Shown: one piece after another, positions 5,603 to 39,639 of the stretch | Layout of the letters: each line of letters begins with the position of its first letter | Numbering within the stretch: the stretch's first letter is position 1 | Origin: a virus | Taxonomy: Duplodnaviria; Caudoviricetes | Strand: one strand, 5' to 3' | IMG/VR virus record: IMGVR_UViG_3300032516_000038 | Location: 1 to 52,559 of that record | Length of the DNA stretch: 52,559 bases | Position numbers and translations under genes: made by a program | Notes under the pieces: generated by a model | Told to the model about the DNA's origin: nothing | The model's database searches: none | What the model saw: only the letters and a program-made list of their open reading frames with translations

Positions 5603-5812
5603 TTACTTGAGCCATCCGAGCTCGTAAGCCGCGTTATCAGCTTCCCTAAGAAGTTTCATTATCCGGGTAGCCTTTGACTCTCCGAGCTTGCAACTGTCGG
5701 CGAGGTATTCCCAGAGTTCATCGCCGCTTCCGTGCCCCCATTCTAGCAGGTCCCGGATGATCCCCGGGAAGTCTAGGTTCCTTTCCCAGAGTGGCTTCTT
5801 CTTCCTTGGCAT
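5603..5812 (-). CDS. Hypothetical protein
   Basis: AGGAGG RBS. Confidence 0.65.
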   Translation of the reverse strand: MPRKKKPLWERNLDFPGIIRDLLEWGHGSGDELWEYLADSCKLGESKATRIMKLLREADNAAYELGWLK

Positions 5813-6499: not shown

Positions 6500-6522
6500 T
6501 CTTCACAACCTCCTTAGATATG

Positions 6523-6990
6523 TCATTCTGGGAGCCTGTCTGTCACAACACAGGAGCCGACTGACCATCTTGTCCGTGGGCCTACAAGTTTCACCAGTCT
6601 TTGAGCCGCAGGCATTTCGAGTTGCATGACTGGTATATCCCTGTGGGCCTTGTCGAACCCTGTGATTGTCACAGTCTTAGGGATAAGACGACTCGGCCTT
6701 TCGGGCTTCCGCATACAGTCTTCACACGGAACCCTTGTGCTTCGATAGAACTCTAGCTGACCAAGGTTCAACAGACCCTTGATCCTCCGGTGTTCTTTGT
6801 CATGGAAGGCGTTTAGGAGCTCACCTTTTGACACATGCCTGCGTGTTTTGGCGCCGCAGTGTTTGCAGTGTTCTATAACCCAGAACTCTTTCTCTTCCGG
6901 GCCCTTGATAATCGTGGTTACTAGATCCTCGAGCTCTTCAAGCTCGGCCATCCATTCTGGGGTTGCCGGCTCTTTCTTCCTCGAACCCAT
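6523..6990 (-). CDS. Hypothetical protein with CxxC pairs (first gene of the early operon)
   Basis: CKHC...CEDC. Start revised to the ATG at 6990 behind a GGGGGTG RBS. Confidence 0.65.
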   Translation of the reverse strand: MGSRKKEPATPEWMAELEELEDLVTTIIKGPEEKEFWVIEHCKHCGAKTRRHVSKGELLNAFHDKEHRRIKGLLNLGQLEFYRSTRVPCEDCMRKPERPSRLIPKTVTITGFDKAHRDIPVMQLEMPAAQRLVKLVGPRTRWSVGSCVVTDRLPE

Positions 6991-7055
6991 TGTTTTCTCA
7001 CCCCCCTTCGTCGAAGCTCCAGAGCTCTTGTCCTTGCCATGCAATTGCTACTATC

Positions 7056-7064
7056 AGCATATCA
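7056..7064 (-). promoter_or_regulatory. Possible extended -10 promoter without a good -35
   Basis: TGaTATGCT about 65 nt upstream of the 6990 start; the -35 position reads TAGTAA. Confidence 0.4.
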
Positions 7065-7240
7065 AAACCCAATCACCTTTACTACTCCTTTAGAAACCCT
7101 ATTCTCCTTCCCTTTGGGTTCCCGATGATGAGAAACTCACGGATTCGTTCGGATTGTATGCCCTTACAGTTGGGCGGTTCACGGCTCACATCCTCGCGGC
7201 CCATTACAGCTGCCAGCCCATCATCCCTAGCAGGCGCTAG

Positions 7241-7614
7241 GATCTCAATCTCCAGAGAAGTTGGATCGGATCGGTGCTATGATCCACCATCCCAGGGATG
7301 GCTTTGACATATCGGATGAGATCCCGAAGATGCTCCAGTGGATCCTAGGTTCTGAGCTCAAAACTACCTATCCCCAGACTCAAGAACCCACATCCTCAAT
7401 CCACGGGGATGGGTTGAGGGCCCACATCCTCCATCTCCAGATGGGTTGGCTCGGATCGGAGCTCCAATCCTCCATCTCGAGAAGAGTTGGCTCGGATTAG
7501 AACCCTCGAGCTGAGATCCACAGGCTCTGGAAGAAGCTCCAGAGGATCATGGGCCCGGAGCTGAGATCCTCGAGGATCAGGGGAGCGCCGAGCTCAGATC
7601 CGCAGGACTCTAGA
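7241..7614. repeat. Non-coding GATC/palindrome-dense degenerate repeat array
   Basis: 12 GATC in 7241-7600. Units resembling ATCCTCCATCTCnAGAnGnGTTGGCTCGGAT at ~7241, 7392, 7426 and 7467; GAGCTSAGATCC at 7508, 7558 and 7590. Confidence 0.75.
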
Positions 7615-7716
7615 GGAAAAGACGAAGACTAGCATGGCGGGGTTGGTCAGGGATGACGGGGGATGGCATGGCGAGGCAGGGTTCGATGTCACGGCAGGCG
7701 GTTCTGGCCATGTGAC

Positions 7717-7758
7717 AAAAAAAAAGGCAAGGCTAGTCGTAAAGACCTAGCCTTGCCT
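7717..7758 (-). terminator. Rho-independent terminator after the two leader genes
   Basis: 12-bp stem AGGCAAGGCTAG/CTAGCCTTGCCT followed by a U-run on the minus strand. Confidence 0.9.
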
Positions 7759-7767
7759 GTGGACGGT

Positions 7768-8136
7768 CTACAGAAGACCGTCTTGACGTAGCCACGCGAC
7801 AAGCAGGAGCAGGTCGGAGTATATCTTCACAACAGACACTTGACCGTCTAGGACGGCGTTAGACGTTTCTGCTAGAATGACTGCTAGGTCAGTCTCGGTG
7901 TCGTCCAGGTCTTGAAGACGAATTCCGGTAGTCGGCCAATACATGGGTAGGCCGTCCGGCGGCCAGGTCTTTCCTTCGGCCAATTCCAGGTAGGAAGGAT
8001 GACCGTCCTTCCTAGTCTGGATAACCTGCGCCTGCGGGTAGTATCCTCGCCTTACGTCCTCCTCTGCGGCCATAGTCTCGGCCAGTCTGTTCCTCTCCGC
8101 TAAGACCATTTCATAAAACTTGTCCTTGACTGGCAT
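7768..8136 (-). CDS. Hypothetical protein (leader gene 2)
   Basis: AGAGGAGGT RBS; followed by a terminator. Confidence 0.75.
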   Translation of the reverse strand: MPVKDKFYEMVLAERNRLAETMAAEEDVRRGYYPQAQVIQTRKDGHPSYLELAEGKTWPPDGLPMYWPTTGIRLQDLDDTETDLAVILAETSNAVLDGQVSVVKIYSDLLLLVAWLRQDGLL

Positions 8137-8202
8137 TTCGTCTTACCTCCTCTTTGGTGGAGAGGAGGATGCCAGGGCATCCTCCCCTCCTCTAGCTAGT
8201 CC

Positions 8203-8547
8203 TTACGTGGGCAACCTATCAACGATTGCCCGACCGGAGGACATGCTGGCAACCTGCCTGAGAAGCCAGACCAGCATAGCCTTCGCTTCCTTCTCGTGCC
8301 AGTAATACTTGGTGTAGGTGCCGTCATTGTAGGCGGCATTCTTCCTCAACCTGGCACGTATCTGCTTGCCCGAGCAGCCAATAGCTGGCTCGTAACTCTT
8401 GACGGTGTAGACCTTCTGGCCTGCATCGTCTATGCCCGTGGCCTTGACCTTCGCCCAAATAGCAGCGAAGACCTTCTGCTCTTCAGTCTGTGGAACAGGC
8501 ATAGCCTGCGCTTGCGGTGTCTTCGGTGTCTTGTCCTCCTGTGCCAT
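8203..8547 (-). CDS. Putative small HTH-like DNA-binding protein (leader gene 1)
   Basis: AGAGGAGGT RBS. YTVKSYEPAIGCSGKQIRARLRK...DGTYTKYYW resembles the core of 29360-29962. Confidence 0.7.
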   Translation of the reverse strand: MAQEDKTPKTPQAQAMPVPQTEEQKVFAAIWAKVKATGIDDAGQKVYTVKSYEPAIGCSGKQIRARLRKNAAYNDGTYTKYYWHEKEAKAMLVWLLRQVASMSSGRAIVDRLPT

Positions 8548-8860
8548 TTCGTCTTTACCTCCTCTTTGTCCGTCTTGTCCCTGGCCAAGTCCGGTCTTGC
8601 AGCCTTACGCCGTAAGGCTTCCCTGCTCCTCCTCCTTTATCCTTCTTCCTGTCCATATTTATTTTCATTCACCTATCTAGCATGGGAAGGACCAGACCAG
8701 AGGACGGGAGCAGACACACACAACAGGAGCAGACCTGACCTAGCCATACGGCCAAACGACCCACCCCCTTGCACCCCGCAGGCTAGACGACGACAGCCAA
8801 TAATAACGAGTTGACTGGAGCTGATTTTCAAACTGTAAAAAGGATCCTTTTGGGATACCC

Positions 8861-8982
8861 TTAGATATGTCAAACCCCTATTTTTCAGAAAGCTTCGTGA
8901 TAAGACCCCTTCGACATGTCGAAATGTAACCAAACCTTGAGTTTTTAGGAGTTTAGGTTTAATACCCCTTAGATATGTCGAA
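8861..8982. promoter_or_regulatory. Three copies of a 14-bp pseudo-palindromic site TTNGAYATGTCNAA upstream of terS
   Basis: 8861 TTAGATATGTCAAA, 8910 TTCGACATGTCGAA (perfect palindrome) and 8969 TTAGATATGTCGAA; each is preceded by ACCC(C). Confidence 0.7.
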
Positions 8983-9028
8983 CTTGGACAGGTATAATGA
9001 CGAGTTTCAACCAATTTAGGAGAAAAGG

Positions 9029-9057
9029 TTGACGAGTTTTCAGTTATAATGTATAGT
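9029..9057 (+). promoter_or_regulatory. Candidate promoter for the packaging/structural operon
   Basis: TTGACG-17 nt-TATAGT; further TATAAT hexamers at 8993 and 9045. Confidence 0.5.
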
Positions 9058-9126
9058 TAGGGCACAGAGGCTTATGGTTTTTGGGCTCACAACCTGAAAA
9101 CCGAGCCTCTTTCCTGTGGAAAGGAG

Positions 9127-9609
9127 GTGAACTCGGAGATGCCTGCCTACTCAAAACTATCTCCTGAGGATGCAGCGGCCAAGAAATTCCGTTCCTCAAG
9201 TGGGCCCGGCAAGAAGCTTCAGAAACGTGAGCGCCTCGCCGCCATGAACCACTTCCTCCGGGCTTACGCTACCACAGGTTTACGTTACAAGGCGTCCCAC
9301 GAGGCTGGTGTTTCCTCTAAGACGATCCGTGACTGGGAGGTTAAGTACCCGAACTTCGCCGACAGGGTCCAAGACTGTGAGCTTATCTTTATTGAGGGGA
9401 TGGAAGTTATTGGGATCAGACGCGCCAAGAGAAAGTCTGATGCCCTCATGATTACTTTTCTCAAAGCTTACCATCCCAAGAAGTATAACCCGAAGCTTGA
9501 GGCAAAACTAGACGTAGGTGCGGCCTCAGTAACCGTAATCTTCTCTCCTGACGAGCTCTCAGACAGAGACACGGAGGCCTCAACTCGTGCCCCTAAGCCA
9601 AAGAGTTAA
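9127..9609 (+). CDS. terS: Terminase small subunit
   Basis: HTH (KASHEAGVSSKTIRDW) and SDALMITFLKAYHPKKY motif; directly upstream of and overlapping terL. Confidence 0.8.
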   Translation: MNSEMPAYSKLSPEDAAAKKFRSSSGPGKKLQKRERLAAMNHFLRAYATTGLRYKASHEAGVSSKTIRDWEVKYPNFADRVQDCELIFIEGMEVIGIRRAKRKSDALMITFLKAYHPKKYNPKLEAKLDVGAASVTVIFSPDELSDRDTEASTRAPKPKS

Positions 9610-11029
9610 GATAATCGGCCAAGGATACAAGCCTCTGGAGTGGCAGAGGAAGTTTCATCAGTCCAAGGCCCGGTTTAGAGCCGTAATCGGCGGCTTTGGC
9701 TGTGGAAAGACCCATCTAGGAGCTCGGGAAGCTCTAAAGATCACTCAATTATATCCCGGAAGCTACGGTTTGATAGGTAGATTGACTTCCACAGCTCTAA
9801 AAGACACAACCCAGAAGAAATTCTTCGAGGTCTTCCCGGCTGAGTTGATCCACCATTGGAATAAAACTGAAAACCACCTGTGGGTCAAGACAGGGGTCCC
9901 CGGCTTGTATTCTGAGATCGTCTTCCGTCACCTAGACGATCCTGGACAGTTCGGTTCGGCCGATCTTGACTGGTTCTGGATAGATGAAGCCCATGAACCT
10001 GATGGTTCAGAGGTCCCTGAGGATGTGTGGACTACACTGCAAGCTCGTATCCAACGTGGTAGTAGGGGCCCCTATGTTGGCTGGGTTACAAGCAACTCTG
10101 GAGGCAAGGACTGGATCTACAACTGGTTCTTTGATAACGAAGCCAAGATTGACCCTGACGAGTATTGGGGCATCACGGTTAGGAGTGAAGAGAATGCCCA
10201 GCACCTGGAACCCGGTTATCTCGAACGTCTCAACAAATTCCCCAAAGCCTGGGTGGCAAGGTTCCTGCACGCTTCTTTCGACGCATTTGAAGGTCAGATC
10301 TACACCCATTTCGACGAAAAAGTCCACGTAATTGACCGCCTTGCCCTACCTGAAGGCTGGAGGTTGTGGCCTGGAGAGGCCGGCTTCGACTTTGGTATCG
10401 CATCTCCTACTGTCGTAGCCTACTCACGGATTTCACCTGACGGTAGGATATACATAGTAGACGAGTTTTACGAGGCTGAAGCTAACGTAGCTAAAGTTGT
10501 GGCCCACATGCGTACCCGTGGGTACAGACGAGTCTGGGCCGACCCATCTACCAGACAAAGGGCCCTATCCCAGAGTGCGAATGGACAGGTCATCAAACTT
10601 ACTGTGGCAGACCACTTCGCTCGGTTCGGAGTTTCTCTGGACCCTGCACATAATGACTTGTCAGATGGTATAACAGCAGTTACGCAGGCGTTAATCCTTG
10701 ACCATACAGGCAAGCCGAAGTTGTATATTACTGATAATTGCACTAGACTAATTAAAAGTATCTCAAACTATCGCTGGATGGCCAGCAAGCCTGGCGAAGA
10801 GTTTAATGAAAAGCCATCTAAGAAGGACAACCATGGGGCTGATGCCATCCGTTATGTAGTAATATCTCAGCCTCTGTATCGTAGATTGAACCCGCTTCGT
10901 CCCGTTAGAAAGACAAAGGTATCTGGGTGGGATCCTGACAAAATGCATCCGAGTTATCTAGAAGATCTGGATGCAGAGAAGAACCCTGACCTTAAAGATT
11001 ACTTCATGGGAGTGAGTGATGACTGGTGA
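9587..11029 (+). CDS. terL: Terminase large subunit
   Basis: Walker A GGFGCGKT, Walker B WFWIDEA, nuclease motifs GFDFG and NHGADAIRY. Confidence 0.95.
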   Translation: MPLSQRVKIIGQGYKPLEWQRKFHQSKARFRAVIGGFGCGKTHLGAREALKITQLYPGSYGLIGRLTSTALKDTTQKKFFEVFPAELIHHWNKTENHLWVKTGVPGLYSEIVFRHLDDPGQFGSADLDWFWIDEAHEPDGSEVPEDVWTTLQARIQRGSRGPYVGWVTSNSGGKDWIYNWFFDNEAKIDPDEYWGITVRSEENAQHLEPGYLERLNKFPKAWVARFLHASFDAFEGQIYTHFDEKVHVIDRLALPEGWRLWPGEAGFDFGIASPTVVAYSRISPDGRIYIVDEFYEAEANVAKVVAHMRTRGYRRVWADPSTRQRALSQSANGQVIKLTVADHFARFGVSLDPAHNDLSDGITAVTQALILDHTGKPKLYITDNCTRLIKSISNYRWMASKPGEEFNEKPSKKDNHGADAIRYVVISQPLYRRLNPLRPVRKTKVSGWDPDKMHPSYLEDLDAEKNPDLKDYFMGVSDDW

Positions 11030-17443: not shown

Positions 17444-17750
17444 GCCACACCATATCGGCTGGGGTATAGGCACTACAGATCCTGCAGTTGGAAATAGCGG
17501 TCTAGAAAACGCTGCTGCTGAGGATCGTACTGAAGGTACTAGTTCTGTGGTGACTGTGACCACAGCCAGTGATACCTACCAGGTCACGGGTACTGTCACT
17601 ATAGTCACAGTTGGGAAGACCATTACAGAAGTTTGCTTGTTCAACGCGGCAACTGCTGGAGAGATATTGATAAGAGCTACTCATACACCCCAAGAATTAG
17701 GTGTGGGTGAGGGTATTGCATACACTATTAAAGTAACTGCTTTTAGGTAG
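17373..17750 (+). CDS. Virion structural protein (fibre-base-like domain)
   Basis: HIGWGIGTTDP...ITEVCLFNAATAG motif of the kind seen in tail-fibre N-terminal/baseplate-like domains. Confidence 0.6.
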   Translation: MVAAMVPNAGLTVIAGRIKGTGLEPHHIGWGIGTTDPAVGNSGLENAAAEDRTEGTSSVVTVTTASDTYQVTGTVTIVTVGKTITEVCLFNAATAGEILIRATHTPQELGVGEGIAYTIKVTAFR

Positions 17751-17754
17751 GCCC

Positions 17755-18975
17755 TTGGACCTTAACCTGCTTTCATATCGCCTGGCGAGGCGTACAGGTC
17801 TACCTTTTTGGCATGTGTCAGAGAAGGAAGCCTTGCATGCTCTTGGACCTAAAGCTGATAGGGCCCATGTCCACCTGGCGTCTGGCAAGTGGCAGCGCGT
17901 CCGCCACGTCTCGCGCGTCCGTCGGGGTGACAGGTGGGTGGACTCTTGGACGCAGGAGTGCGTCGCGCCACCGCCACTTCAGTTCGGCAGGGGGTTCGTT
18001 TTCGCGCCGCTCATGGCGGCGTCGAACTTGGACCCCGTGACGGCGGGGACCAACGACAACGACGTCCGTGCTTACGGTGCCAACTACACCACGGTACGCA
18101 ACGCGACTTCGGGAACCCTCAGTTCTATAAGTCTATCGTATTGGAGTGTCGGACAGTTCTGGAACGGGGTGACCTATGGCATCTACCGAGCGATGACCCC
18201 GTTTGACGCCACGGGTCTGCCCGATATCTGCGACATCGTGACGGCCCACATCCACCTAAACTGCACCGGACCTGTTAACTATTTCGGCGACACGGTCCAC
18301 CAGGTCTCCTATGACGGCAGCAACCCGATGGGCACCGCCGATTACAACAACTTCGGCGCGGTCTCGCGGGGCAGCGTGTCCATGGTGCCGACTGGGGCCT
18401 ACGTCCTTACGTTAACCGACTTCCAGGACATCTCGAGGACAGCCATCAGCTGTCTTGGATTCAAGGCAGGCAAGGACATAAGCGCGACCCCGCCGACCAG
18501 CACTGAGTACCTCATGATTACCTCCGCCAACGGCACGGACCCGGCGCTCAGGCCGGTGCTGGACATCTCTTATTCCACTACTGTTGAGATTACCATCTCA
18601 ACAACCTTTAAGGCTGGTACTACAATTTCTAGACTCACAAATCTTAATATCTCAACAACCTTCAAAACTAGTTCTACAGCCTCAGCTGGATATTTAAGGT
18701 TGATTTCTATAACTATCGAAGCAGTTGTGAAGTTCTCCAGTAGGATAAGTCGTTTAATTTTCCTCATTAGGGCTGCTGAGGTAAGATTTAGAACTTCTAT
18801 TGTTTCAGTTAAAGGTTTATGGATAAAGACAACTGACACAGAAAGCTCAATCGGGGAAGACACAGAACCAGTTTCAGGTTCTTGGACTAAAAAGGCAGAT
18901 GGAACTTCTGTTTGGGGCAAGAAGACAGATGGAACTTCTGCCTGGACTAAGAAAGAGGAAGGTGGTCCCTTCTAA
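17755..18975 (+). CDS. Virion appendage / receptor-binding-like protein (mosaic)
   Basis: Thr/Ser-rich, with a GC-rich central domain ending RPVLDISY; C-terminal ISTTFK and WxKK-DGTS repeats. Start codon uncertain. Confidence 0.55.
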   Translation: MDLNLLSYRLARRTGLPFWHVSEKEALHALGPKADRAHVHLASGKWQRVRHVSRVRRGDRWVDSWTQECVAPPPLQFGRGFVFAPLMAASNLDPVTAGTNDNDVRAYGANYTTVRNATSGTLSSISLSYWSVGQFWNGVTYGIYRAMTPFDATGLPDICDIVTAHIHLNCTGPVNYFGDTVHQVSYDGSNPMGTADYNNFGAVSRGSVSMVPTGAYVLTLTDFQDISRTAISCLGFKAGKDISATPPTSTEYLMITSANGTDPALRPVLDISYSTTVEITISTTFKAGTTISRLTNLNISTTFKTSSTASAGYLRLISITIEAVVKFSSRISRLIFLIRAAEVRFRTSIVSVKGLWIKTTDTESSIGEDTEPVSGSWTKKADGTSVWGKKTDGTSAWTKKEEGGPF

Positions 18976-19592
18976 TGGCTTCCTTAACTACTGAGGAAAT
19001 GAGACAGGCCGTGCTAGATCTGACGAGTGAAGTACTCACTCCTACTATTATGGACTCCTGGTTTGTCATGGGACTTCGTAGGATGACACCTTACATACGC
19101 AAAGAAGCTTGGTGGTATCATACAATAACCGCAGACGAGATTACTGCTGTCACCAAAAGATTCCTGCTACCCCCAGACTTCTACAAGCCTGTGGAAGTTA
19201 GTCTCATAAGGAGCACGTTTACTAGGTTTCTTCAGCCCAGAATACTTAATGATGAGTCTACTAATGGATACAGACTCTGGCGTAAAGAAATCCTTATCAA
19301 TAATACTCTCCTTCTGGCCGACCAGATAGACCTTTACTACTACGGACTCCCAACTATCGCCGATATACCAGAAGGTTTCGAGTGGGGCCTAGTTTCCTTT
19401 GCTGCTGCTAAATCCCAGCAGCGTGGTGAGGAACTTGACGAGAAGAGTGATTTCTACCGGGACTTCCTAGAAGTCCTTGCTGAACTTGACAAGTTCACAC
19501 TAGATATTAGCACAGGAGGAGATAATACTCCTGTGGCCATGACCCTAGTCAAATCTGATGTTGTAGATCCTGACGAGGAGACTGAAGTATGA
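18975..19592 (+). CDS. Head-tail adaptor protein
   Basis: FLLPPDF and DIPEGFEWGLVSFAAAK pattern; 205 aa; precedes the nozzle-like gene. Confidence 0.65.
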   Translation: MASLTTEEMRQAVLDLTSEVLTPTIMDSWFVMGLRRMTPYIRKEAWWYHTITADEITAVTKRFLLPPDFYKPVEVSLIRSTFTRFLQPRILNDESTNGYRLWRKEILINNTLLLADQIDLYYYGLPTIADIPEGFEWGLVSFAAAKSQQRGEELDEKSDFYRDFLEVLAELDKFTLDISTGGDNTPVAMTLVKSDVVDPDEETEV

Positions 19593-29359: not shown

Positions 29360-29962
29360 TTACTTCTTGCCCTTCTTGTGCTTCTTCTTGCCCTTCTTCT
29401 GTTCCTTCGGCTGCGCCTTCGGGACCACGTCTACAACCTTGGTCTTAGCTGCTACCTCTTTCTTGGCTTTCTTGGGTGAGTCCGCGACAGCCCGGCCAGA
29501 CCGGATGTAGTCACGGATCTTGTTGAGGATGGGCTCTCCTTCCATCCAGTAATACCGAGTGAAGGCGTTATCCGGATAGAACTTCGCCCTCAGGATTACC
29601 CTTAGGCTGCGAGGAGAGATACCCAGTTCAGTCCCGAGCTCCTTGGTCGTAATAGCTCCATCCGGGACGTCGAACTTCCGCTCCTTAGCAGCTTTCTTTT
29701 CTTTCTTTTCCTTCTTAGCCTTCTTCGGCTTCGGCTCTTCCTCTTCCTCTTCCTCTACGTCCTCATCCTCTTCGTCTTCAGTCTCCTCTTCCTCTTCTTC
29801 CTCCTCCTCTTCCTCTTCGTCTTCAGTCTCTTCGTCTTCCTCTTCGTCGTCCTCTTCCTCCTCGGGCTCCTCGTCGTCAGCTAGTTCGTCGAGGTTGTCG
29901 AGGTCATCCAGATCGACGTCGTCCTTCTCTTCGACTACGGGCGCTGCCTTCTTCTTAGCCAT
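29360..29962 (-). CDS. Acidic/lysine-rich protein with HTH-like domain
   Basis: ~65-residue D/E tract, K-rich flanks, ITTKELGTELGISPRSLRVILR core; GGAGGT RBS. Confidence 0.75.
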   Translation of the reverse strand: MAKKKAAPVVEEKDDVDLDDLDNLDELADDEEPEEEEDDEEEDEETEDEEEEEEEEEEEETEDEEDEDVEEEEEEEPKPKKAKKEKKEKKAAKERKFDVPDGAITTKELGTELGISPRSLRVILRAKFYPDNAFTRYYWMEGEPILNKIRDYIRSGRAVADSPKKAKKEVAAKTKVVDVVPKAQPKEQKKGKKKHKKGKK

Positions 29963-29975
29963 GTGATCTTACCTC

Positions 29976-30281
29976 CTAGTGTTTCTCGTCCTCATATTCA
30001 AGGACCACTTGCCCTGCTATCAAGCGGTCGACACTTTCTAGTATCACCTGGTCTCCCGCTTTCATTACCTCTCCGTAGGAAACCTCGTCTCCTAAGTCTG
30101 CAACACCAGCTCTAAGTAAGAGCCTTAAGACTAAGAGACTGGCCACTACGTGTTCATACACCAGGGCTGGGCCCTTGGTGTGGACTTCAATGAGCTTACT
30201 CGCCAGTTTCTTAACTCTCTCTCCCTCTCCTGCCCTGTGGACTTCTCCCATAGAGATTACCAAGAGAGCTTTTTCTCGCAT
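29976..30281 (-). CDS. Hypothetical protein (start possibly upstream at 30335)
   Basis: Operon packing; the frame is open from 30335. Confidence 0.6.
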   Translation of the reverse strand: MREKALLVISMGEVHRAGEGERVKKLASKLIEVHTKGPALVYEHVVASLLVLRLLLRAGVADLGDEVSYGEVMKAGDQVILESVDRLIAGQVVLEYEDEKH

Positions 30282-30339
30282 GGAAAGAAGGTCGGAGTCT
30301 GGTATGTTGCTTAGGTCTCCAGCTTCTGCTACGATGGTC

Positions 30340-30633
30340 TTACACCTCCAATAACCGTGAAGCTGCTTTCAGGGCCTCTCTCACGGACTCTACCTTACAG
30401 GCCACCCCTCCATTCTCCTTTATCTGTGAAATCACCTCTGCTTGAAGTGGGGTCAAGCCACGACGATTACCAGGTCTCTTCACTTCAAGGGCGATGAACT
30501 TACCGTTGACGCACCCGAGAAGGTCAGGAACACCTGCAGCCTGGTAGGGACCGCCATGCACTTTCATCCACCAACCTCCGACTTCACTTTCGAGAGCCTT
30601 GAGTATTTTCTTCGTGAGGACTGACTCTAGCAC
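30340..30633 (-). CDS. VRR-NUC domain nuclease / Holliday-junction resolvase-like
   Basis: E...GVPDLLGC..GKFIALEVKRP...TPLQ. Confidence 0.9.
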   Translation of the reverse strand: MLESVLTKKILKALESEVGGWWMKVHGGPYQAAGVPDLLGCVNGKFIALEVKRPGNRRGLTPLQAEVISQIKENGGVACKVESVREALKAASRLLEV

Positions 30634-31190
30634 TAAAAGTCATCCTCGTCTTCATCTTCATCCTCGTCTTCATCCTCATCCTCTTCATCCTCATCCTCTT
30701 CATCCTCATCTTCGTTGTCGTCAGGAGGAGGGACTCCCTTAGATTTCTTCTTACTTTTCGGCTGAGGAGTATCCTCTTCAACTTCAGGCTCACTATCAAC
30801 TTCTCCCTTAGTCTTGAAGAGGCGGAACTTGCGGATGTTGGCGAATGTCCTAGACCCATCTTTCGATGGAGTATGAACGATATCCGCCATGAATACACGA
30901 CCCACAAGTTTCTTAGGGTCTATTACCAAGTCCTGTGCAGCCGAGTCAGACACCTTAATTCCGAGACCCCTCAGGAAGCCCTTGATAATGAAGAAGTTCT
31001 GTGTCAAGGGTAACCTGATATAGTGAACGCCCTTGGAACCTCTAACGGCCTTCACCTTTACCTCGAACCTGTAGTCCTTTGATTTCCTGTCCTTTTCCAC
31101 CATGGAGAGGACCTTGAAGACGACATTACTAGCCTCATCAGCTAGATCTGCGTCTTTTGGGATGTGGATCTTTACTGCCTTCTCGCCCAT
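30633..31190 (-). CDS. Single-stranded DNA-binding protein (DUF669/gp2.5-like)
   Basis: OB-like core with an acidic tail ending in Phe; next to the Sak4-like ATPase. Start revised to the ATG at 31190 (AGGAGG). Confidence 0.7.
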   Translation of the reverse strand: MGEKAVKIHIPKDADLADEASNVVFKVLSMVEKDRKSKDYRFEVKVKAVRGSKGVHYIRLPLTQNFFIIKGFLRGLGIKVSDSAAQDLVIDPKKLVGRVFMADIVHTPSKDGSRTFANIRKFRLFKTKGEVDSEPEVEEDTPQPKSKKKSKGVPPPDDNEDEDEEDEDEEDEDEDEDEDEDEDDF

Positions 31191-34079: not shown

Positions 34080-36502
34080 TGTTTTCCGACTTTTATCTCA
34101 GTCACAATCGGTATGAAGAACCCCACCCCAAAGAGTTCATGCAGGGGGAGATTCTCTAGAACCTGTTTAATCCGTGGCACCCAGTAGTCTACGTGATCTT
34201 TTCTTATTGCCATAAGGAGAGCATCATGAATAATTGACAAGATCCTCATCGTCGGATGATACCTGTCAGGGAAGTCTCTATCGTGTTGTTCTTTAAGCTT
34301 AGAAGCTCCAAGGACTACAAAGTCTGTAGCTGTCCCTTGAACAGGAGCATTGATTGCCTGCCTTTGTGCTTCAGCTCTAACACCCCTATCAGGTGAATAA
34401 ATATCAGGTAGATGACGTATTCTACCTAAGATAGATCTAACATACCCTAACTTAGCTGCTACTTCCTTCTGTCTTTTATGCCAAGCCAGTAAGTCACGGT
34501 AGACTCCAAAGAACCTAGCCCTATACTCTTCAGCTTCTTCTTCTGTGAAGAAAGTTTCGAACTTAGTCAAAGCATATTCCTGAAAGCCCTTTGCACTCAT
34601 ACCATACAAGAAACCGAAGTTGACAGATTTAGCTTTTTTCCTCTGCTCCTTTGTAACCTTCTCTGCTGGTAATCCTAAAATAGACCTAGCTGTGGCCATG
34701 TGGATATCTTCACCAGAAAGAAAGGCCCTTATCATGTTCTTATCCCGTGCCATCTCCGCGGCAATCCTAAGCTCTATCTGGCTGAAGTCTGCTTCTACTA
34801 AGACCCACCCAGGTTCTGCTGTAATGATACCTCTGATCTTTGGATCTCTGGGTACCTGTTGTAGGTTAGGGTCATTACTTGAGAACCTACCAGTGACCAC
34901 TCGAGCTATCCTATACTTCGGATACATTCTGTTATTAGGTTTAATCTTGTCTTTCCATCCATCAAGAAAGAAACTCAGACTATGCTTGAACCCTCGAAAC
35001 TCCATGAGTAGTTCAATGAGTTGATGTTCATCACGAAGACGGATTAATGCTTTCTCGCTAGTACTCGGGGCACCCTTAGGAGTCTTTATTTCCACAGGGA
35101 GTCCAAGACCTTCTTCGCTATAGAGGATATTGGCTACCTGTTTAGGTGAACCCCAATTCACTACTTCAATACCCTGGAGTTCTCTAAAGGACTCAGGTAG
35201 AAGCCCATTCATCTTCTCGGTGACTGCTTCCATAGCTTTCCTGACCTTTATTCGAGCCTTGACTAGCCTTTTTGGTCCTATCTGAACCCCATTGGTTTCC
35301 ATGTCAGTTGCCAGCATTATCCCAGGCATTGAGATATGCTTGGCCAGGGCGGTTAGTCTAACATCTTCTCTAAGTTTTTTATTCATAGGCCCATAGAGAG
35401 ACCTAGTGTAGATAGCATCTTTGGCATTGTGCCTCATAAGGCGTCCTAGAGGGAAGTCCTTATTGAAGTTCTTGGAGTCATCTTTGTAGTTAGAAACACC
35501 TAGAAAGAGTTGCACTAGAAACTCTAGGTTGTGAGGCATGTTCTCGTCAAGCAAGTAACCTACAACCATGGTGTCGAAGTATATCTTTGGTACCCAAATC
35601 CCTGCAAGCAATCGGAGCCACACTAGGTCAAACTGACCGTTCTGGGTAACCCACCTTACCTTCGGGTCTTCTAGTATAGGTCTTAGAGCATCATACACTA
35701 TATTAGCTTTATGTTCCCATGGACTCTTGTGGTGCTCTAGAGGAATCACCCAGGCATGTCCTTCTTTGTCTGATAGAGCTATACAGTATATGGCAGAGTC
35801 AGGAGTTCTAGGGTCTAGGCCTGAAGTCTCTAGGTCAAGAGAGATCAGGTTAGATCCTTTAAGTGCTTTGACACACTCCTCGAGTGCATCTTCATCCCAT
35901 ACCCTTGTCATGGTCTTCTTGTATGATACAACGGGGTCTGGTGTTCCTTGGACAAGGCGGAAGAACTTGGTGATGTCCATCTCAACTAGGATAAGGTTCT
36001 TAGGATTGTAGAGTAGAGAGGCTGGATGAAGTGTGGCTATGACTGTCATACCATTGAGTTTCTGGATCTTTCCCCGCTCCTTGGTGATAGACGAATGGCC
36101 TCTACCTAAGAAACTCATAAGAGCAAACCTACCAAGGAGTAAAACATACTTCGGCTTGACTAACTCTATCTCTGCTTGAAGGTAACGACTGCAAGCTTTG
36201 ATCTCTTTGTTGGTCGGATCACGATTTTCAGGAGGTCTACACTTAACCACATTGGTGATATAAACCTCGTCTCGGGTAACCCCCATGCTAGAGAACGCCT
36301 GGTCTAAGATCTTACCCGCGGATCCACTGAATGGTTTCTCTATCTCATCTTCACGTTTACCTGGAGCCTCTCCAATGACCATGACCTCACACGGTACCGG
36401 TCCTCTGCCTATCAGGCATACACATTGAGCAGTTTCACCGAGTACACAGTCATCACAGTCCGGGTTTCTGAGTGTGAGCCACGCCCTGGTCAGGGTACTC
36501 AA
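34037..36502 (-). CDS. polA: Family A DNA polymerase with N-terminal family-4 uracil-DNA glycosylase domain and 3'-5' exonuclease
   Basis: UDG: CxxC, GEAPG, TNVVKCRPP, HPA. Exo: DLETSG, NGQFD. Pol: ADFSQIELR, KSVNFGFLYG, IHD. Confidence 0.95.
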   Translation of the reverse strand: MSTLTRAWLTLRNPDCDDCVLGETAQCVCLIGRGPVPCEVMVIGEAPGKREDEIEKPFSGSAGKILDQAFSSMGVTRDEVYITNVVKCRPPENRDPTNKEIKACSRYLQAEIELVKPKYVLLLGRFALMSFLGRGHSSITKERGKIQKLNGMTVIATLHPASLLYNPKNLILVEMDITKFFRLVQGTPDPVVSYKKTMTRVWDEDALEECVKALKGSNLISLDLETSGLDPRTPDSAIYCIALSDKEGHAWVIPLEHHKSPWEHKANIVYDALRPILEDPKVRWVTQNGQFDLVWLRLLAGIWVPKIYFDTMVVGYLLDENMPHNLEFLVQLFLGVSNYKDDSKNFNKDFPLGRLMRHNAKDAIYTRSLYGPMNKKLREDVRLTALAKHISMPGIMLATDMETNGVQIGPKRLVKARIKVRKAMEAVTEKMNGLLPESFRELQGIEVVNWGSPKQVANILYSEEGLGLPVEIKTPKGAPSTSEKALIRLRDEHQLIELLMEFRGFKHSLSFFLDGWKDKIKPNNRMYPKYRIARVVTGRFSSNDPNLQQVPRDPKIRGIITAEPGWVLVEADFSQIELRIAAEMARDKNMIRAFLSGEDIHMATARSILGLPAEKVTKEQRKKAKSVNFGFLYGMSAKGFQEYALTKFETFFTEEEAEEYRARFFGVYRDLLAWHKRQKEVAAKLGYVRSILGRIRHLPDIYSPDRGVRAEAQRQAINAPVQGTATDFVVLGASKLKEQHDRDFPDRYHPTMRILSIIHDALLMAIRKDHVDYWVPRIKQVLENLPLHELFGVGFFIPIVTEIKVGKHWGSLQPWEKSRTQ

Positions 36503-36917
36503 AGGCTACCTTGGCCTCCTCTAAAAGAGTATAACTAGGTGTCCAAGACGAGTAGGAGCCCATAGCTCCAGGAGGTATGACCACCCTTACTATTCCCGCA
36601 TTGATGATTAGTTTGATACAGGTAGGGCAGGGAACATGGGTGCAGTAGAGACTAGCCCCTTTCGTGGACAATCCTTCTTTGGCTGCAAAGGCTATCGCAT
36701 TGGCCTCGGCGTGGGATGTGCGAACACAATGGTCATTCTCTATCTGACAACCTACGTCGAGACAATGGGGCATACCAGAGGGTGACCCATTGTAGCCCGT
36801 GGAGATGACGTGGCTGTCTCTAGCTATTACAGCTCCTACGTAGGCCTTATCACAGGTGCCTCTTGTAGCAAATACTCGGGCAACTTCCATCAGAATATGA
36901 TCCCTGGTAGGTCTCAC
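36453..36917 (-). CDS. dCMP deaminase (ComEB-like)
   Basis: TGYNG, HAEANA and PCPTC. Start revised to the GTG at 36917, given the AGAGGAGG RBS and a promoter just upstream. Confidence 0.93.
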   Translation of the reverse strand: MRPTRDHILMEVARVFATRGTCDKAYVGAVIARDSHVISTGYNGSPSGMPHCLDVGCQIENDHCVRTSHAEANAIAFAAKEGLSTKGASLYCTHVPCPTCIKLIINAGIVRVVIPPGAMGSYSSWTPSYTLLEEAKVAFEYPDQGVAHTQKPGL

Positions 36918-36939
36918 TTGCACTCCTCCTCTTACATCT

Positions 36940-36968
36940 ATTATACCATACCGGGTTAGTCTTGTCAA
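36940..36968 (-). promoter_or_regulatory. sigmaA-type promoter for dCMP deaminase and polymerase
   Basis: TTGACA-17 nt-TATAAT with TG extension. Confidence 0.9.
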
Positions 36969-36970
36969 AC

Positions 36971-37405
36971 CTAATGTATCGTTCCTCGAAACACGAACTC
37001 GGGACCTGTATCTCTTAACTTGTAAGTTATCTTCCCACCACCCCACTCCTCCCTGTGGTCTTTGATAACCTTTCTCGCAAGTACCTTAGCTCCCTCTTTA
37101 TTAAGAGCATATAAGCTCCCGAACCAGAGATACCTACCACCCTCAAACCTGATATTCACCACGAAGTTATTCATGATGGTTCTATCAGAGATCTCGTCAC
37201 GCTGGTCTTCTTCTCCGATGAGATTCTGTGGTAATCCATTTGAGAGTAATATCCAGCTTTTAGTCACTCGTTCAACGGCGAAGTAGTAAGGACGTGGATC
37301 ACCTGGACCTCTCTCCTCTTGTTTCAGTCTTTCGATAAGCTCCTGCATCGCTATAGTCCCCGGAAGTCTAAGATATACCTTCACTTTAGAACACTCCTTC
37401 AGCAT
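36971..37405 (-). CDS. Hypothetical protein
   Basis: Operon packing inside the nucleotide-metabolism cluster. Confidence 0.6.
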   Translation of the reverse strand: MLKECSKVKVYLRLPGTIAMQELIERLKQEERGPGDPRPYYFAVERVTKSWILLSNGLPQNLIGEEDQRDEISDRTIMNNFVVNIRFEGGRYLWFGSLYALNKEGAKVLARKVIKDHREEWGGGKITYKLRDTGPEFVFRGTIH

Positions 37406-38078
37406 CCTTCTTGAACATATGAAGCGACCCTATCCAATGAGTGAAGTTTCCCACAGGAAGATCTGCTTCGTTTGCCACATAGCGGAGAAGTTTCATGGCC
37501 ATCCAGATGTCGTTCTCGAAGTGGGTTACTAGATCTGCCGAGCGTTGTAGGTAGGTCATATGGAGTTCCCCATCTCTCAGGATAAACCAATAACCTAGAG
37601 AGCAGGGAATTCTATTGTAACCTCCCATAGATAAAACATCTTCAATAGGATTCCATACACTCATGAATAACTGTCGAGACTCCGGCCGAAGTCGAAGCTC
37701 TTTTATTACATCTCCAGCACTGTGGTGATAAAACCTATCAGCGTAGGTGTAAGAGAACTTACCATGCAACCTAAGGAATTGTCTCCAGACTTCTTTACGA
37801 AGTTTCCATGCCTCACCCGGGTTTGGTGGTTTTACTCCCTTTAGACCCACCACTCTCTCTTGCCACTCTGCGTCAGCCCAAGGTTGAGTGGGATGAAGGT
37901 CACCAAGCATAGCACCTGTTACCGTGTATATGTAGTTTTGAAGTTCTAAAGTGTCATAGTTAGGATCATCCCTTACTACCACATCTTGGTATGTGTCGGG
38001 ATGGACTCTGATACCCATCTCGGCTACATCACGTTTGATCTCAGAGAGAGCCTCTCCAAAGTTATTATAGATCCTCAT
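37386..38078 (-). CDS. Thymidylate-synthase-fold enzyme, dCMP-(hydroxy)methylase-like
   Basis: SRQ, RIPC (catalytic Cys), QRSADLVTHFEND and IGSLHMF; Asp at the position of E. coli ThyA N177. Confidence 0.85.
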   Translation of the reverse strand: MRIYNNFGEALSEIKRDVAEMGIRVHPDTYQDVVVRDDPNYDTLELQNYIYTVTGAMLGDLHPTQPWADAEWQERVVGLKGVKPPNPGEAWKLRKEVWRQFLRLHGKFSYTYADRFYHHSAGDVIKELRLRPESRQLFMSVWNPIEDVLSMGGYNRIPCSLGYWFILRDGELHMTYLQRSADLVTHFENDIWMAMKLLRYVANEADLPVGNFTHWIGSLHMFKKDAEGVF

Positions 38079-38292
38079 CTCGTCTACCTCCCTTGACTAA
38101 TCCTACAACCCATGTCTGGCCTTTCTTGTCAGACACCTGTTTAGTTTCGATCACAATGCAGTTGGCCATGCGTCCAGAACACGTAGCTTCGAAATACTCA
38201 AGGGCTTCCCTGTAACTCCTAGCCGCGCACTTACAGTGTTGCCTGCAGGCTCCTGTCCGATCGATCCCCGTAAATAGATAGTGGGTCGCCAC
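38065..38292 (-). CDS. Small Cys-rich protein between the two TS-fold genes
   Basis: CRQHCKC...C...C; AGGAGG RBS. Confidence 0.6.
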   Translation of the reverse strand: MATHYLFTGIDRTGACRQHCKCAARSYREALEYFEATCSGRMANCIVIETKQVSDKKGQTWVVGLVKGGRRDEDL

Positions 38293-38304
38293 TACATTTC
38301 CTCC

Positions 38305-39195: not shown

Positions 39196-39639
39196 TTAGT
39201 ACCCACTCCTCTGGCGGAATCGGTTTACTTGACCCTTTTGGGTATACATCTGCCATATCCACGAGGCAATCTCTTCAGGTGTATGAGTATCTTGGAAGGG
39301 AAGAAGAAGATGCCTCAAATAGAAATGGAACCCATCTATGATCTCTTCCCAGTAATGTTGTTCATCCGTCAGCATATGGGTAGCTTTCCAAGGCTTGTTC
39401 TTGAGGCTGTTGTTAGCCTCTCCCAACTCGTCGGTGATACGACCAACAGACTCTTTCAGGTACCTTTGCCACTCTAGGTCGTCTATGTCAAAGAGCCGGG
39501 CAGGTCTAGGGTGTCCATTCTTGGCTTCAATCTTATGATACTTACTCTCCAGATCCCACTGGAAGCGGAGTATCTCCACCAGCGTGTCCTGACCCGGCTC
39601 CAGTTTCAGAGGAACCATATCCGATACGTTGACCATCAC
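39196..39639 (-). CDS. All-alpha dNTP pyrophosphatase (dimeric dUTPase / T4 gp56 dCTPase-like)
   Basis: DELGEA...KPWK...EEIIDGFHF. Confidence 0.8.
   Translation of the reverse strand: MMVNVSDMVPLKLEPGQDTLVEILRFQWDLESKYHKIEAKNGHPRPARLFDIDDLEWQRYLKESVGRITDELGEANNSLKNKPWKATHMLTDEQHYWEEIIDGFHFYLRHLLLPFQDTHTPEEIASWIWQMYTQKGQVNRFRQRSGY

Follow-up and report, generated by a model that had tools for sequence, protein, structure and literature searches.

A GATC-rich array of direct repeats in a non-coding gap of an uncultured phage genome is, as judged by its conservation, a real and selected cis-element, since its position, orientation and repeat core are kept across distant relatives. On the same sequence grounds, it is very probably a candidate protein-loading site, one of the roles that an earlier sequence-only reading had suggested for it. 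Large non-coding gaps are rare in phage genomes, and here one of them holds an array that is retained at 30-50% protein identity. Together with the small protein encoded by ORF A, or with the paralogue of this protein, the array offers a concrete candidate pair for a control point in a phage group without a cultured member.

Genome and setting

The window, i.e. the whole 52.6-kb stretch of DNA that was analysed, is a complete phage genome derived from metagenomes, with a 127-bp repeat at its ends, 127 bp being a usual word length of assemblers. The five sequencing runs carrying the phage are all sediment-metagenome DNA kept as contigs, with no RNA run among them and without any reported starts, ends or joints, and a nucleotide search of positions 6500-9200 against 50,697 phage records gave no match. 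The structural genes are podovirus-like (P22-like portal, SU10-type adaptor), and the large terminase shares 30% identity with that of the closest cultured phage, Paenibacillus phage API480. Replication genes comprise PolA, a SNF2-type helicase and a primase/AAA_25 protein with a MarR_2-like C-terminus (E 3.3e-4); the primase-helicase gene (47082-49022) has a C-terminal winged-helix stretch. A possible set of thymidine-modification genes is also present, and no match to the Dam-type methylase families PF02086, PF01555 and PF05869 was obtained in the complete phage genome. The two largest non-coding gaps of the genome border a leftward two-gene operon beside terS, and the array occupies one of them (Table 1).

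Table 1. Coordinates of the features around the array and of the ORF A paralogue in the window.
Feature	Position	Strand	Details
First gene past the array	6523..6993	-	156 aa from ATG at 6993, CxxC...CxxC, no family match
GATC-rich repeat array, non-coding gap	7237..7650	-	12 GATC at 7241-7600
Repeat core 3	7260..7271	-	ATCCGATCCAAC, then TTCTCTGGAGATTGAGAT
Repeat core 2	7445..7456	-	ATCCGAGCCAAC, then CCATCTGGAGATGGAGGAT
Repeat core 1	7486..7497	-	ATCCGAGCCAAC, then TCTTCTCGAGATGGAGGAT
Three GGATCTSAGCTC units	7508-7519, 7558-7569, 7590-7601 (span 7508..7601)	-
Perfect 14-nt palindrome	7565-7578	-	GATCCTCGAGGATC
Intrinsic terminator of the two-gene operon	about 7716..7758	-	12-bp perfect stem, U9 tail; -23.4 kcal/mol, z -4.8
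ORF B	7768..8136	-	122 aa, acidic (pI 4.5), near-orphan
Intergenic hairpin, no U tract	8159..8190	-	-30.2 kcal/mol, z -3.1
ORF A	8203..8547	-	114 aa, basic (pI 9.6), unnamed family, helix-turn-helix-like core
Divergent non-coding control region, ORF A / terS	8548..9126	.	579 nt, terS on the opposite strand
Three 18-nt repeats before terS	8858-8875, 8907-8924, 8966-8983		include palindrome TTCGACATGTCGAA
terS (small terminase subunit)	9127..9609	+	phrog_4044, 2.9e-17
Large terminase subunit	9587-11029		downstream of terS; phrog_2, 4.1e-31
ORF A paralogue	29360..29962	-	200 aa, poly-acidic N-terminal tail, same helix-turn-helix-like core; E 8.7e-9

The array in distant relatives

Five loci are known in which an ORF A gene comes with its downstream DNA, namely the window and the loci L006, L007, L008 and L009, whose homologues share 29-52% identity with the window protein. 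In the distant relatives L006, L007 and L008, the ORF A homologue is followed by one or two small genes, an intrinsic terminator and a GATC-rich array of direct repeats. A core, GGATCGATCCAAC, is common to these three of the four relatives, as two to five direct copies that share their strand with the gene of the homologue and are irregularly spaced (25-122 nt). Across 14 aligned units from four phages, the columns GA.CCA.C are invariant. The densest GATC cluster lies directly past the small operon in all four relatives, with 55.9, 54.2, 29.2 and 35.5 GATC per kb in the arrays of L006 to L009 against 3.9, 4.8, 5.3 and 6.5 in the respective loci (window, 29.0 against 4.8), and in L007 all nine GATC sites of the contig fall inside the array. 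The arrays are also G+C-rich islands (51-55% vs 42-49%). L009 is the weaker case: its cluster is built from a different repeat without the CCAAC core, it overlaps a 120-aa reading frame on the opposite strand, and terS is not the upstream neighbour of the operon. The same contig carries CGGATCAGAGCTCGG, which is nearly identical to the palindrome GATCCTCGAGGATC of the window. The absence of the pattern from related phages, which would have refuted the sequence-only reading, was thus not observed, with repeat core and post-terminator position in three of four relatives and a GATC cluster of another form in the fourth.

In L006, L007 and L008 the array is bordered on one side by a terminator hairpin followed by a T-run and on the other by an extended -10 sigma-70 promoter, so the DNA in between is probably not transcribed, and in L006 and L007 a short A+T-rich stretch lies past the array. 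The gene beyond the array varies, being a paralogue of ORF A in L006 and L007 and other genes in L008 and the window. In the window, L002, L006 and L008, transcription leading away from terS meets the ORF A gene first, and a lone GGATC site occurs in the divergent region before it in the window (GATC at 8843), L006 (4609) and L008 (438). No array was seen in L002-L005, which are related by their large terminase; upstream of the gene, the L002 and L003 sequences run out within 2.4 and 1.6 kb, and L004 and L005 are too distant. Searching the whole records L002, L003 and L006 for GATCCAAC returned only single matches outside the L006 array.

Anatomy of the array

Read on the minus strand, the array of the window contains three ATCCGAKCCAAC cores, each followed by YCWTCT..GAGAT, together with two degenerate cores and three GGATCTSAGCTC units, every unit lying on the same strand as the flanking genes. 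None of these motifs has another copy in the 52.6-kb genome, i.e. the array is a single-copy element. By eye, core 2 agrees with one unit of L007 at 13 of 14 positions. The units of the window are tandem GGMTC-GGATY words and those of the relatives have the palindrome GGATCGATCC, so the mode of binding may differ between them.

With 12 GATC in 380 nt the array is the genome maximum (99th percentile, 6), and GGATC/GATCC words were observed 13 times against 1.24 expected. On the reading preferred below, the abundance of GATC and palindromes simply follows from the GGATC half-site and from the GAGCTC and CTCGAG words within the units, and does not reflect Dam or restriction biology. A hot-spot of this kind may merely accompany a repeated binding site, which calls for caution before it is read in terms of Dam or restriction. 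The restriction decoy proposed earlier makes little sense here, because GATC is not avoided by the genome as a whole (4.8 per kb) and a Dam-type methylase is not detectable.

The minus strand of 7200-7720 folds at -220.1 kcal/mol (z -3.56; as stable in 0 of 100 shuffles) and the plus strand at z -1.59. Rfam 15 gave nothing over the array, its sole row in 6800-9300 being sok before terS at chance level (E 0.92). DnaA boxes, searched by eye, were limited to 7-of-9 look-alikes in the window, with none in the cores of the relatives, and no A+T-rich unwinding region is visible adjoining the window array.

The operon and its promoters

The leaders of the two genes (7768-8136 and 8203-8547, minus strand) are identical at 22 of 23 positions as read by eye, and AAGAGGAGGTAA has two matches in the genome, both in these leaders. 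The operon combines a conserved gene for a predicted DNA-binding protein, ORF A, with a variable small acidic cargo gene, ORF B. One homologue of ORF B (50% identity) was found, on a 555-nt contig, and the protein has no PHROG match and no Pfam match above threshold. Its structural model (mean pLDDT 46.6) is too poor for a structure search, and its Atlas matches score about 0.80, which is the noise level. The second genes in the operons of the relatives are likewise small, variable and, by eye, acidic, and neither these cargo genes nor ORF B match any known family.

The sigma-70-like promoters in the divergent control region point to terS, and no canonical extended -10 promoter was found for the leftward operon of the window. 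Canonical ones exist elsewhere in the genome (46.75-46.81 kb, 43.7 kb, 36.9 kb and 2.9 kb), and the divergent pair at 46746-46810 adjoins a sigma-factor gene. The operons of L006, L008 and L009 have a strong TTGACA/extended -10 promoter. Between the window array and the next gene there is no canonical promoter either, the sole match being a weak one (9 of 12) at 7248-7220, so a simple operator-promoter picture is not visible.

The ORF A family

An all-against-all HMMER search combined with a profile search placed ORF A in a family of 17 members (the window protein and 16 others), which share the stretch TTKE.A..LG..GKQLRR.LR followed by YNDG.YT.Y.W, where the motif NDG.YT.Y.W is invariant. Four long proteins among the first family matches, three of them repeat-rich, were judged spurious. 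Used alone, ORF A retrieved only itself from a set of 5.8 billion proteins, and the family profile found no relative in bacterial and archaeal genomes. None of the 17 proteins has a name or a precomputed Pfam domain, and ORF A has no PHROG match and no Pfam match above threshold. Its weak Pfam matches are all to helix-turn-helix families and all under the curated thresholds: FaeA in 7 of the 17 members (best E 9.3e-4), HTH_Crp_2 and HTH_24 in 4 each, and HTH_20 and MerR_1 in 3 each. The best solved-structure match is the helix-turn-helix-like stretch of 2x48 (E 0.0058), and the structural neighbours in the Atlas belong to MerR_1, P22_AR_N and Bro-N clusters (TM 0.40-0.45 by query). The ORF A model (mean pLDDT 69) yielded a best E of 0.6 in Foldseek against the PDB, and in VIA a best Z of 5.5 to unrelated helical proteins. 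ORF A looks like a basic helix-turn-helix DNA-binding protein. The paralogue in the window shares 43% identity over 53 aa with the product of L006 6162-6581, and in L006 and L007 its orthologue lies directly past the array.

The sequence-only reading had cast both ORFs as protective or entry proteins with possible anti-restriction activity. For ORF A, the resemblance to a basic DNA-binding protein points elsewhere; ORF B is acidic but has no recognisable fold or family, its poor model giving no view on a DNA-mimic fold of the Ocr or ArdA type, and anti-restriction activity is without support. No homologues of the T5 pre-early proteins A1, A2 and Dmp were found by PHROG or Pfam for ORF A or ORF B.

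Composition of the operon block

The counts given by the sequence-only reading proved correct on recounting. Positions 7621-8820 contain no GATC, 72 GAC/GTC trinucleotides and four hexamer palindromes (TGGCCA twice, GAATTC and TAGCTA), against 12 GATC, 3 GAC/GTC and 11 palindromes at 7241-7620 (GGATCC, CCTAGG, GAGCTC x3, CTCGAG x3, GGGCCC x2, TCTAGA); extending the latter to 7081-7620 brings one extra palindrome, CAGCTG. The switch near 7620 is indeed abrupt, the final GATC lying at 7597. The only GATC between 7598 and 9323 is that at 8843, within GGATCC. About 19 palindromes had been expected by chance for the block, a value that applies to random sequence but not to this genome, whose own mean is 11.9 per 1200 nt (521 hexamer palindromes genome-wide, where random sequence would give 821). 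After dinucleotide shuffling, the block contained 16.4 +/- 3.8 palindromes, with four or fewer in 0 of 1000 shuffles.

The longest GATC gaps in the genome measure 1000, 1112, 1180, 1236, 1246 (the operon block) and 1494 nt. Windows of 1200 nt without GATC number 385 of 51,360 and fall at three loci, and those with at most four hexamer palindromes number 488 of 51,360, in four regions. The presumed rarity of a GATC-free 1.2-kb stretch therefore does not hold by itself, but it does hold jointly with palindrome poverty: GATC-free windows with at most six palindromes occur in the operon block only (49 windows; post hoc test). The poverty of the operon in GATC and palindromes is real, within the lowest 1% of windows and jointly unique, although each property alone recurs elsewhere.

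The block is also the only place in the genome with at least 70 GAC/GTC per 1200 nt. Per kb, these trinucleotides reach 78.6 in ORF B (16 of 29 in frame 0), 37.7 in ORF A and 61-66 in the non-coding flanks, compared with a gene median of 29.1. Its GC content is 55% vs 49% for the genome, with ATC depleted and GAC, GCC and ACG enriched. Among the relatives, operon palindromes per kb against the locus mean are 9.6/13.5, 8.3/14.9 and 3.1/12.6 in three cases and 13.7/11.3 in L009.

Proposed explanation

Our preferred reading, held tentatively, is that the array marks an operon boundary with repeats to which proteins bind, probably those of the ORF A family. It would represent lineage-specific repeated binding sites that fill the space from the small operon's terminator to the leftward operon beyond, with a small winged-helix-like protein, either ORF A or its paralogue, as the likeliest ligand. 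Binding might set up a nucleoprotein boundary and repress or activate transcription into the block of small genes running from 6993 down to 337. We infer all three steps, namely that ORF A binds DNA, that it binds the array and that it controls transcription. Repeat arrays bound by an initiator or a regulator are known as iterons and autoregulatory operator arrays. The present array resembles them in that units of 12-30 nt recur in direct orientation on one strand of a non-coding gap beside a promoter, in that the array is single-copy, and in its linkage to a gene for a predicted small DNA-binding protein. The irregular spacing differs, and neither the unit (GGATCGATCCAAC / ATCCGAKCCAAC) nor the protein family linked to it has been described. 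In anti-CRISPR/Aca operons, the helix-turn-helix regulator is conserved and stands beside small acidic cargo genes that vary. The operon described here similarly joins a helix-turn-helix-like gene to small variable acidic genes, with its own promoter and terminator, but the regulator gene comes first instead of last and the array lies past the operon instead of at its promoter.

Alternatives to a regulatory binding array

A replication origin, with the direct repeats as iterons for a phage initiator such as the primase-helicase and the adjoining promoter supplying transcriptional activation, seems unlikely. The few direct copies on one strand, spaced 25-122 nt apart in a G+C-rich island, the short A+T-rich stretch and strong promoter past the array in relatives, the phage's own replication set and the single-copy nature of the array are all consistent with an origin. 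Against this, the window array adjoins no A+T-rich unwinding region, the primase gene is 39 kb away, and the short contigs L007-L009 link the array to the ORF A gene and to no replication gene; the turning points of GC skew follow gene orientation and are therefore uninformative. A pac-type or concatemer-junction element for the terminase, possibly governed by GATC methylation as in P1, is improbable. The array lies 1.5 kb from terS, a linkage kept in the window, L006 and L008, and there is a precedent in P1 pac, which has seven TGATCA/G hexamers and is cleaved under the control of their Dam methylation (PMC10028697). Both are clusters of short GATC-containing repeats linked to packaging genes, but P1 pac is located inside the small-terminase gene pacA and is Dam-dependent (PMC10028697), whereas the window array lies past two genes and a terminator, with no methylase gene found. 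Moreover, the three 18-nt repeats directly before terS are better candidates, two to three genes and a terminator separate terS from the array, the L009 cluster has no terS beside it, and contigs of several runs and of the relatives run straight through the array. A structured non-coding RNA or long 5' leader on the minus strand is very unlikely: the stronger fold of that strand speaks for it, yet internal repeats may by themselves make a sequence fold more stably than its shuffles, the units are direct repeats whose palindromes are short and local, Rfam had no match, and the relatives' arrays lie between a terminator and a promoter. Least probable of all, perhaps, is a functionless, recently acquired cassette with decaying tandem duplications, as might be suspected from the composition of the block, which is unlike that of the genome, and from the near-orphan ORF B; the ORF A gene and the array nevertheless keep position, orientation and core at 29-52% protein identity.

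The staged entry envisaged by the sequence-only reading, in which the genome would end between ORF A and terS and the DNA from 8.8 to 7.6 kb would enter first, is improbable as a whole. The operon would then hold site-poor early protective genes, and terminator and array would act as an entry pause or hand-over, as in T5 or T7. In its favour, no other 1.2 kb of the genome is as poor in GATC and palindromes taken together as the operon, whose palindrome density is below the locus mean in three of four relatives, and L006, L008 and L009 have strong operon promoters. The genes would also point in the direction of entry, provided that packaging begins at terS and that the DNA packaged last is the first to enter. 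ORF B, like the second genes in the operons of the relatives, is small, variable and acidic (by eye in the relatives), as are many early anti-defence proteins. On the other hand, GATC-free stretches recur at three loci and palindrome-poor ones in four regions, and the trend in the relatives is weak and rests on small numbers, as palindrome-rich intergenic DNA raises the means of the short loci. ORF A resembles a regulator, L009 has the operon and a GATC cluster without terS upstream, strong canonical promoters exist elsewhere in the window but none was found for its leftward operon, and possible thymidine modification would reduce the need to avoid sites. In T7, the first early gene is that of Ocr, an acidic DNA mimic, and entry is driven by transcription. 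The resemblance to T7 is that the early genes lead off from a putative end and that a strong terminator follows them, but the first gene of the window encodes a basic, DNA-binding-like protein and no acidic DNA mimic. In T5-like phages, restriction sensitivity depends on sites in the first-entering region (PMC10644984). First-step transfer in T5/BF23 likewise involves a short leading gene set, perhaps comparable in its scarcity of restriction sites, and then, ahead of the genes that follow, a non-coding stretch with the injection stop signal that is rich in repeats. In T5 the region spans about 9.7 kb within a long terminal repeat and holds many pre-early genes (PMC10644984), against only two genes (0.8 kb) in the window, which lacks a long terminal repeat and has structural genes of podovirus type.

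There is also a slight chance that this uncultured podovirus-like clade has a miniature two-step start, with a restriction-site-poor operon and the array as a checkpoint awaiting a DNA-binding protein. The very short first operon, with a strong terminator behind it, would contain the gene for a single DNA-binding protein and an exchangeable gene for an acidic cargo, and DNA entry or transcription would stall at the array until the newly made protein loads. This would amount to first-step transfer of the T5 kind on a scale of about 1 kb, in a virion of unrelated type. If the array were an origin or an entry checkpoint, it would provide a sequence marker for such sites in metagenomic phages.

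Further observations

A pattern of two spaced cores, scanned for in viral contigs, matched the L006 contig once more and otherwise L011, which was rejected as a chance match in a coding peptide repeat. Tandem promoters inside the units (sigma-70 or ECF spacing) were discarded on reading the units, the spacings being a misfit. The higher depth of the array piece in run X3 was dropped as evidence, depth being one figure per contig. That run (record 12) contains a strain variant roughly 88% identical to the window, for which a partial list of changes is available that is full for 7295-7489 only; there, the variant has 21 substitutions and 5 indels, and, as read by eye, core 2 and its flank (7426-7457) are free of these changes, as is 7474-7489.

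Conservation of the array

ORF A and ORF B form the leftward operon, and the GATC-rich stretch past its terminator is, judged by comparison with related loci, a set of repeats that is conserved, keeps one orientation and occurs once in the genome. Its enriched word is not GATC as such but the asymmetric GGATC/GATCC (13 occurrences vs 1.24 expected), and its units were read in the sense direction of the genes on either side, along the minus strand. A search of the whole genome for the array motifs found no occurrence outside the array, the gap that holds it contains no convincing reading frame, and operon and array alike drew no match from PHROGs or Rfam. When folded as RNA, the array is more stable than shuffled sequences on the minus strand (z -3.56) but not on the plus strand (z -1.59).

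Features of the window, from gene calling, PHROGs, Pfam and motif reading
Feature	Position	Strand	Remarks
Small genes, function unassigned	7044 down to 337	-	gene calling
First non-coding gap	6994-7767		between minus-strand genes
Units with core ATCCGAKCCAAC, then YCWTCT.GAGAT.GAG (three)	plus-strand starts 7486, 7445, 7260	-	array
Degenerate copies of the ATCCGAKCCAAC unit (two)		-	in array gap
GGATCTSAGCTC units (three)	7508, 7558, 7590	-	array
Perfect 14-nt palindrome	7565-7578		in array
ORF B	7768-8136	-	
ORF A	8203-8547	-	
Second non-coding gap	8548-9126		between ORF A and terS
18-nt repeats, CCCTTAGATATGTCRAAC type (three)	8858-8983		directly before terS; spacings 49 and 59 nt
terS, terL, P22-like portal, capsid protein, SU10-type adaptor, further structural genes	up to 29303	+	PHROGs/Pfam
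ORF A paralogue	29360-29962	-	~60 mostly Asp/Glu residues, Lys-rich stretch, helix-turn-helix-like core as in ORF A
Replication and nucleotide-metabolism block	46716 down to 29360	-	PolA, dCMP deaminase, thymidylate-synthase-like protein, SNF2-type helicase, sigma factor
Near-consensus promoters beside sigma-factor gene	46746-46774; 46782-46810	-; +	
Block with primase-helicase	46838-52390	+	

A word-based search with ORF A matched only ORF A itself; an exhaustive HMMER search added two small relatives, and a profile of the three yielded a family of 17 proteins (73-114 aa, core TTKE.A..LG..GKQLRR.LR then YNDG.YT.Y.W), all of them unnamed and lacking a precomputed Pfam domain. Scanning DNA collections with the family profile gave four loci with flanks, one on a viral contig (L006) and three on metagenome contigs (L007, L008 and L009). 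The gene order of the window is repeated in L006, L007 and L008, and the search for the same pattern in relatives, which the sequence-only reading had proposed, found an array after the small operon in all three. In L006 and L008, terS and terL are divergent from the operon and the ORF-A homologue lies under a strong promoter (TTGACA + extended -10); the L007 contig begins about 150 nt before the homologous gene. In each of the three, the homologue precedes one or two small genes and a hairpin with a T-run; then come 2-5 copies, in direct orientation, of a unit whose core is GGATCGATCCAAC, followed by a promoter (conserved between L006 and L007) and the next gene. GATC densities per kb in the array vs the whole locus are 55.9/3.9 in L006, 54.2/4.8 in L007, where all nine GATC of the contig fall inside the array, 29.2/5.3 in L008 and 29.0/4.8 in the window. 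Across an alignment of 14 units from four phages the GA.CCA.C columns are invariant, and one window unit equals an L007 unit at 13 of 14 positions by reading.

L009, whose ORF-A homologue is only 29% identical to the window protein, lends weak support to a conserved array. Its densest GATC cluster also lies past the small operon (35.5 vs 6.5 per kb) and it carries the word CGGATCAGAGCTCGG, almost identical to a window unit; the cluster is without the CCAAC core and is overlapped by a 120-aa frame on the opposite strand, and the upstream neighbour is not terS. In L002, a further related locus, the family member leads the genes that are read away from terS, and the contig stops 13 nt past the second gene, so that the array position falls off the record.

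A close strain variant on contigs of the metagenome run X3 is ~88% identical over 7264-7519, with 25 substitutions and 5 indels. Within the fully listed part (7295-7489), all 21 substitutions and all 5 indels spare both core 2 with its flank (7426-7457) and 7474-7489, with positions assigned by reading and four substitutions near the contig ends absent from the list. This pattern fits selection on the array cores.

The operon and its proteins

The hints to the function of ORF A, a basic protein (pI 9.6), are all weak and agree in direction: it looks like a helix-turn-helix, regulator-like protein. Sub-threshold Pfam matches in its family are all of the helix-turn-helix type (FaeA in 7 of the 17 members; HTH_Crp_2, HTH_24, HTH_20 and MerR_1 in 3-4 each), among solved structures 2x48 matches best, along a helix-turn-helix-like stretch (E 0.0058), and Atlas structure neighbours belong to MerR_1, P22_AR_N and Bro-N clusters (TM 0.40-0.45 by query). 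Foldseek and VIA searches with the predicted model gave no clear match. The orthologue of the ORF A paralogue is the gene directly after the array in L006 and L007. ORF B is acidic (pI 4.5) and found no family match; its one homologue, encoded on a contig of 555 nt, is 50% identical. The predicted model of ORF B was too poor to use.

The second-position genes of the operon vary among relatives. An operon gene of L008 (1170-1364) is homologous to window 5603-5812 (-) with 36% identity (E 3e-10), the L008 copy lying before the array, inside the ORF-A operon, and the window copy beyond it. By this homology, genes have crossed the array in the course of evolution; with the second genes also variable, the ORF-A gene and the array are fixed, and the cargo around them is mobile. 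In the window, 6523-6993 (-) is the first gene past the array; its product, basic and 156 aa long, has two zinc-ribbon-like CxxC pairs and matched no family.

Near-identical gene leaders and a strong closing terminator had been noticed by eye, and both were found: the leaders of ORF A and ORF B agree at 22 of 23 positions by reading, their common 12-nt core occurring nowhere else in the genome, and the terminator is a 12-bp hairpin with a U9 tail (-23.4 kcal/mol, z -4.8). Another strong hairpin, lacking a U tract, lies between the two genes (8159-8190, -; -30.2 kcal/mol) and could act in processing, in stability or as a partial terminator.

Composition of the operon block

Recounting reproduced the reported contrast between 7621-8820 (0 GATC, 4 hexamer palindromes, 72 GAC/GTC) and 7241-7620 (12, 11 and 3, respectively). 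Twelve GATC per 380 nt is the genome maximum (99th percentile, 6). Of gaps of at least 1180 nt without GATC, a Poisson model predicts 0.88 and the genome has four, that of the operon among them; three loci have GATC-free 1200-nt windows, and four genome regions have such windows with at most four palindromes, GATC aside. Windows both GATC-free and with at most six palindromes are confined to the block (49 of 51,360, a post hoc test), whereas each depletion alone recurs elsewhere. Palindromes are avoided genome-wide (521 observed vs 821 expected for random sequence), which lowers the proper expectation for the block from the ~19 first assumed to about 12; shuffling the block gave 16.4 +/- 3.8, with four or fewer in 0 of 1000 shuffles. 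GAC/GTC density is the genome maximum, yet uneven along the block (per kb, 78.6 in ORF B, 37.7 in ORF A, 61-66 in the non-coding flanks), and over half of the occurrences in ORF B are in-frame Asp or Val codons; we read the excess as local composition and no signal. Long GATC-free gaps outnumber the Poisson prediction and GATC is clumped genome-wide, with further gaps at 17523-19017 (1494 nt), 29965-31145 (1180), 41617-42853 (1236) and 51059-52171 (1112).

Possible roles of the array

Arrays of repeats next to genes for small DNA-binding proteins are an already known kind of element; judging from databases only, neither this repeat unit nor the ORF-A family has, to our knowledge, been described in print. 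The array sits in DNA predicted to be untranscribed wherever terminator and promoter are readable, and short contigs, too, keep it beside the ORF-A gene. Most simply, it would be a protein-binding array, an account that we put somewhat short of an even chance; the ORF-A family is the most likely ligand, and the site of action would be the border where the short first operon gives way to the next block. The main rival is a replication origin made of initiator-binding repeats. A replisome of the phage's own and a winged-helix-like tail on its primase-helicase favour it, but no A+T-rich element adjoins the array of the window, and we regard an origin as rather unlikely. A packaging site seems improbable, given that the 18-nt repeats before terS are better candidates and that the genome, when searched, encodes no Dam-type methylase. 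The GATC-rich pac site of P1 lies inside pacA (PMC10028697), unlike the array.

Staged injection, in which the operon enters first and the array acts as a pause signal, restriction decoy or protein-loading site, was the proposal of the sequence-only reading. The layout is compatible: the genes of the site-poor operon run away from terS, and palindrome density is lower in the homologous operon in three of four relatives, although intergenic DNA rich in palindromes inflates their means. Restriction sensitivity of T5-like phages is decided by sites in the part of the genome that enters first (PMC10644984). Compatibility aside, the analysis found no positive support. The regulator-like appearance of ORF A and the recurrence of each depletion elsewhere argue against staged injection, as does a promoter scan that placed canonical extended -10 promoters at 46746-46810, 43.7 kb, 36.9 kb and 2.9 kb and none before the leftward operon. 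We consider staged injection a long shot, and its bolder checkpoint version longer still.

Genome layout and further elements

The record of 52,559 bases is the whole virus record (completeness rating 100%), and its 127-bp end repeat has a usual assembler word length, so the record is circular on paper and its ends are uninformative on physical ends. A nucleotide-level search of 50,697 phage records with 6500-9200 found no match, and the nearest cultured large terminase, that of Paenibacillus phage API480, is only 30% identical.

The 18-nt repeats before terS are candidate operators or binding sites for terminase. A perfect 14-nt palindrome lies in the middle copy, and the third copy extends over the -35 of a sigma-70-like promoter. 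Copies with 3 mismatches are found at 52205-52218 and, within the array, at 7303-7316.

Window 36453-40243 and 50564-51079 encode a dCMP deaminase, a short thymidylate-synthase-like protein (match limited to its C-terminal part), a kinase-like protein and a MazG-like pyrophosphatase. Together these genes could serve thymidine or other base modification of phage DNA, which, if true, would alter the reading of the restriction-site statistics. Tandem 6-45-nt repeats (CTCTTC and TCATCC types) at 29722-29864 and 30640-30713 encode poly-acidic tracts in minus-strand genes. The sigma-factor gene (46042-46716, -) adjoins a divergent near-consensus promoter pair (TTGACA + extended -10), and 46042-46810 is likely an early control region, far from the array.
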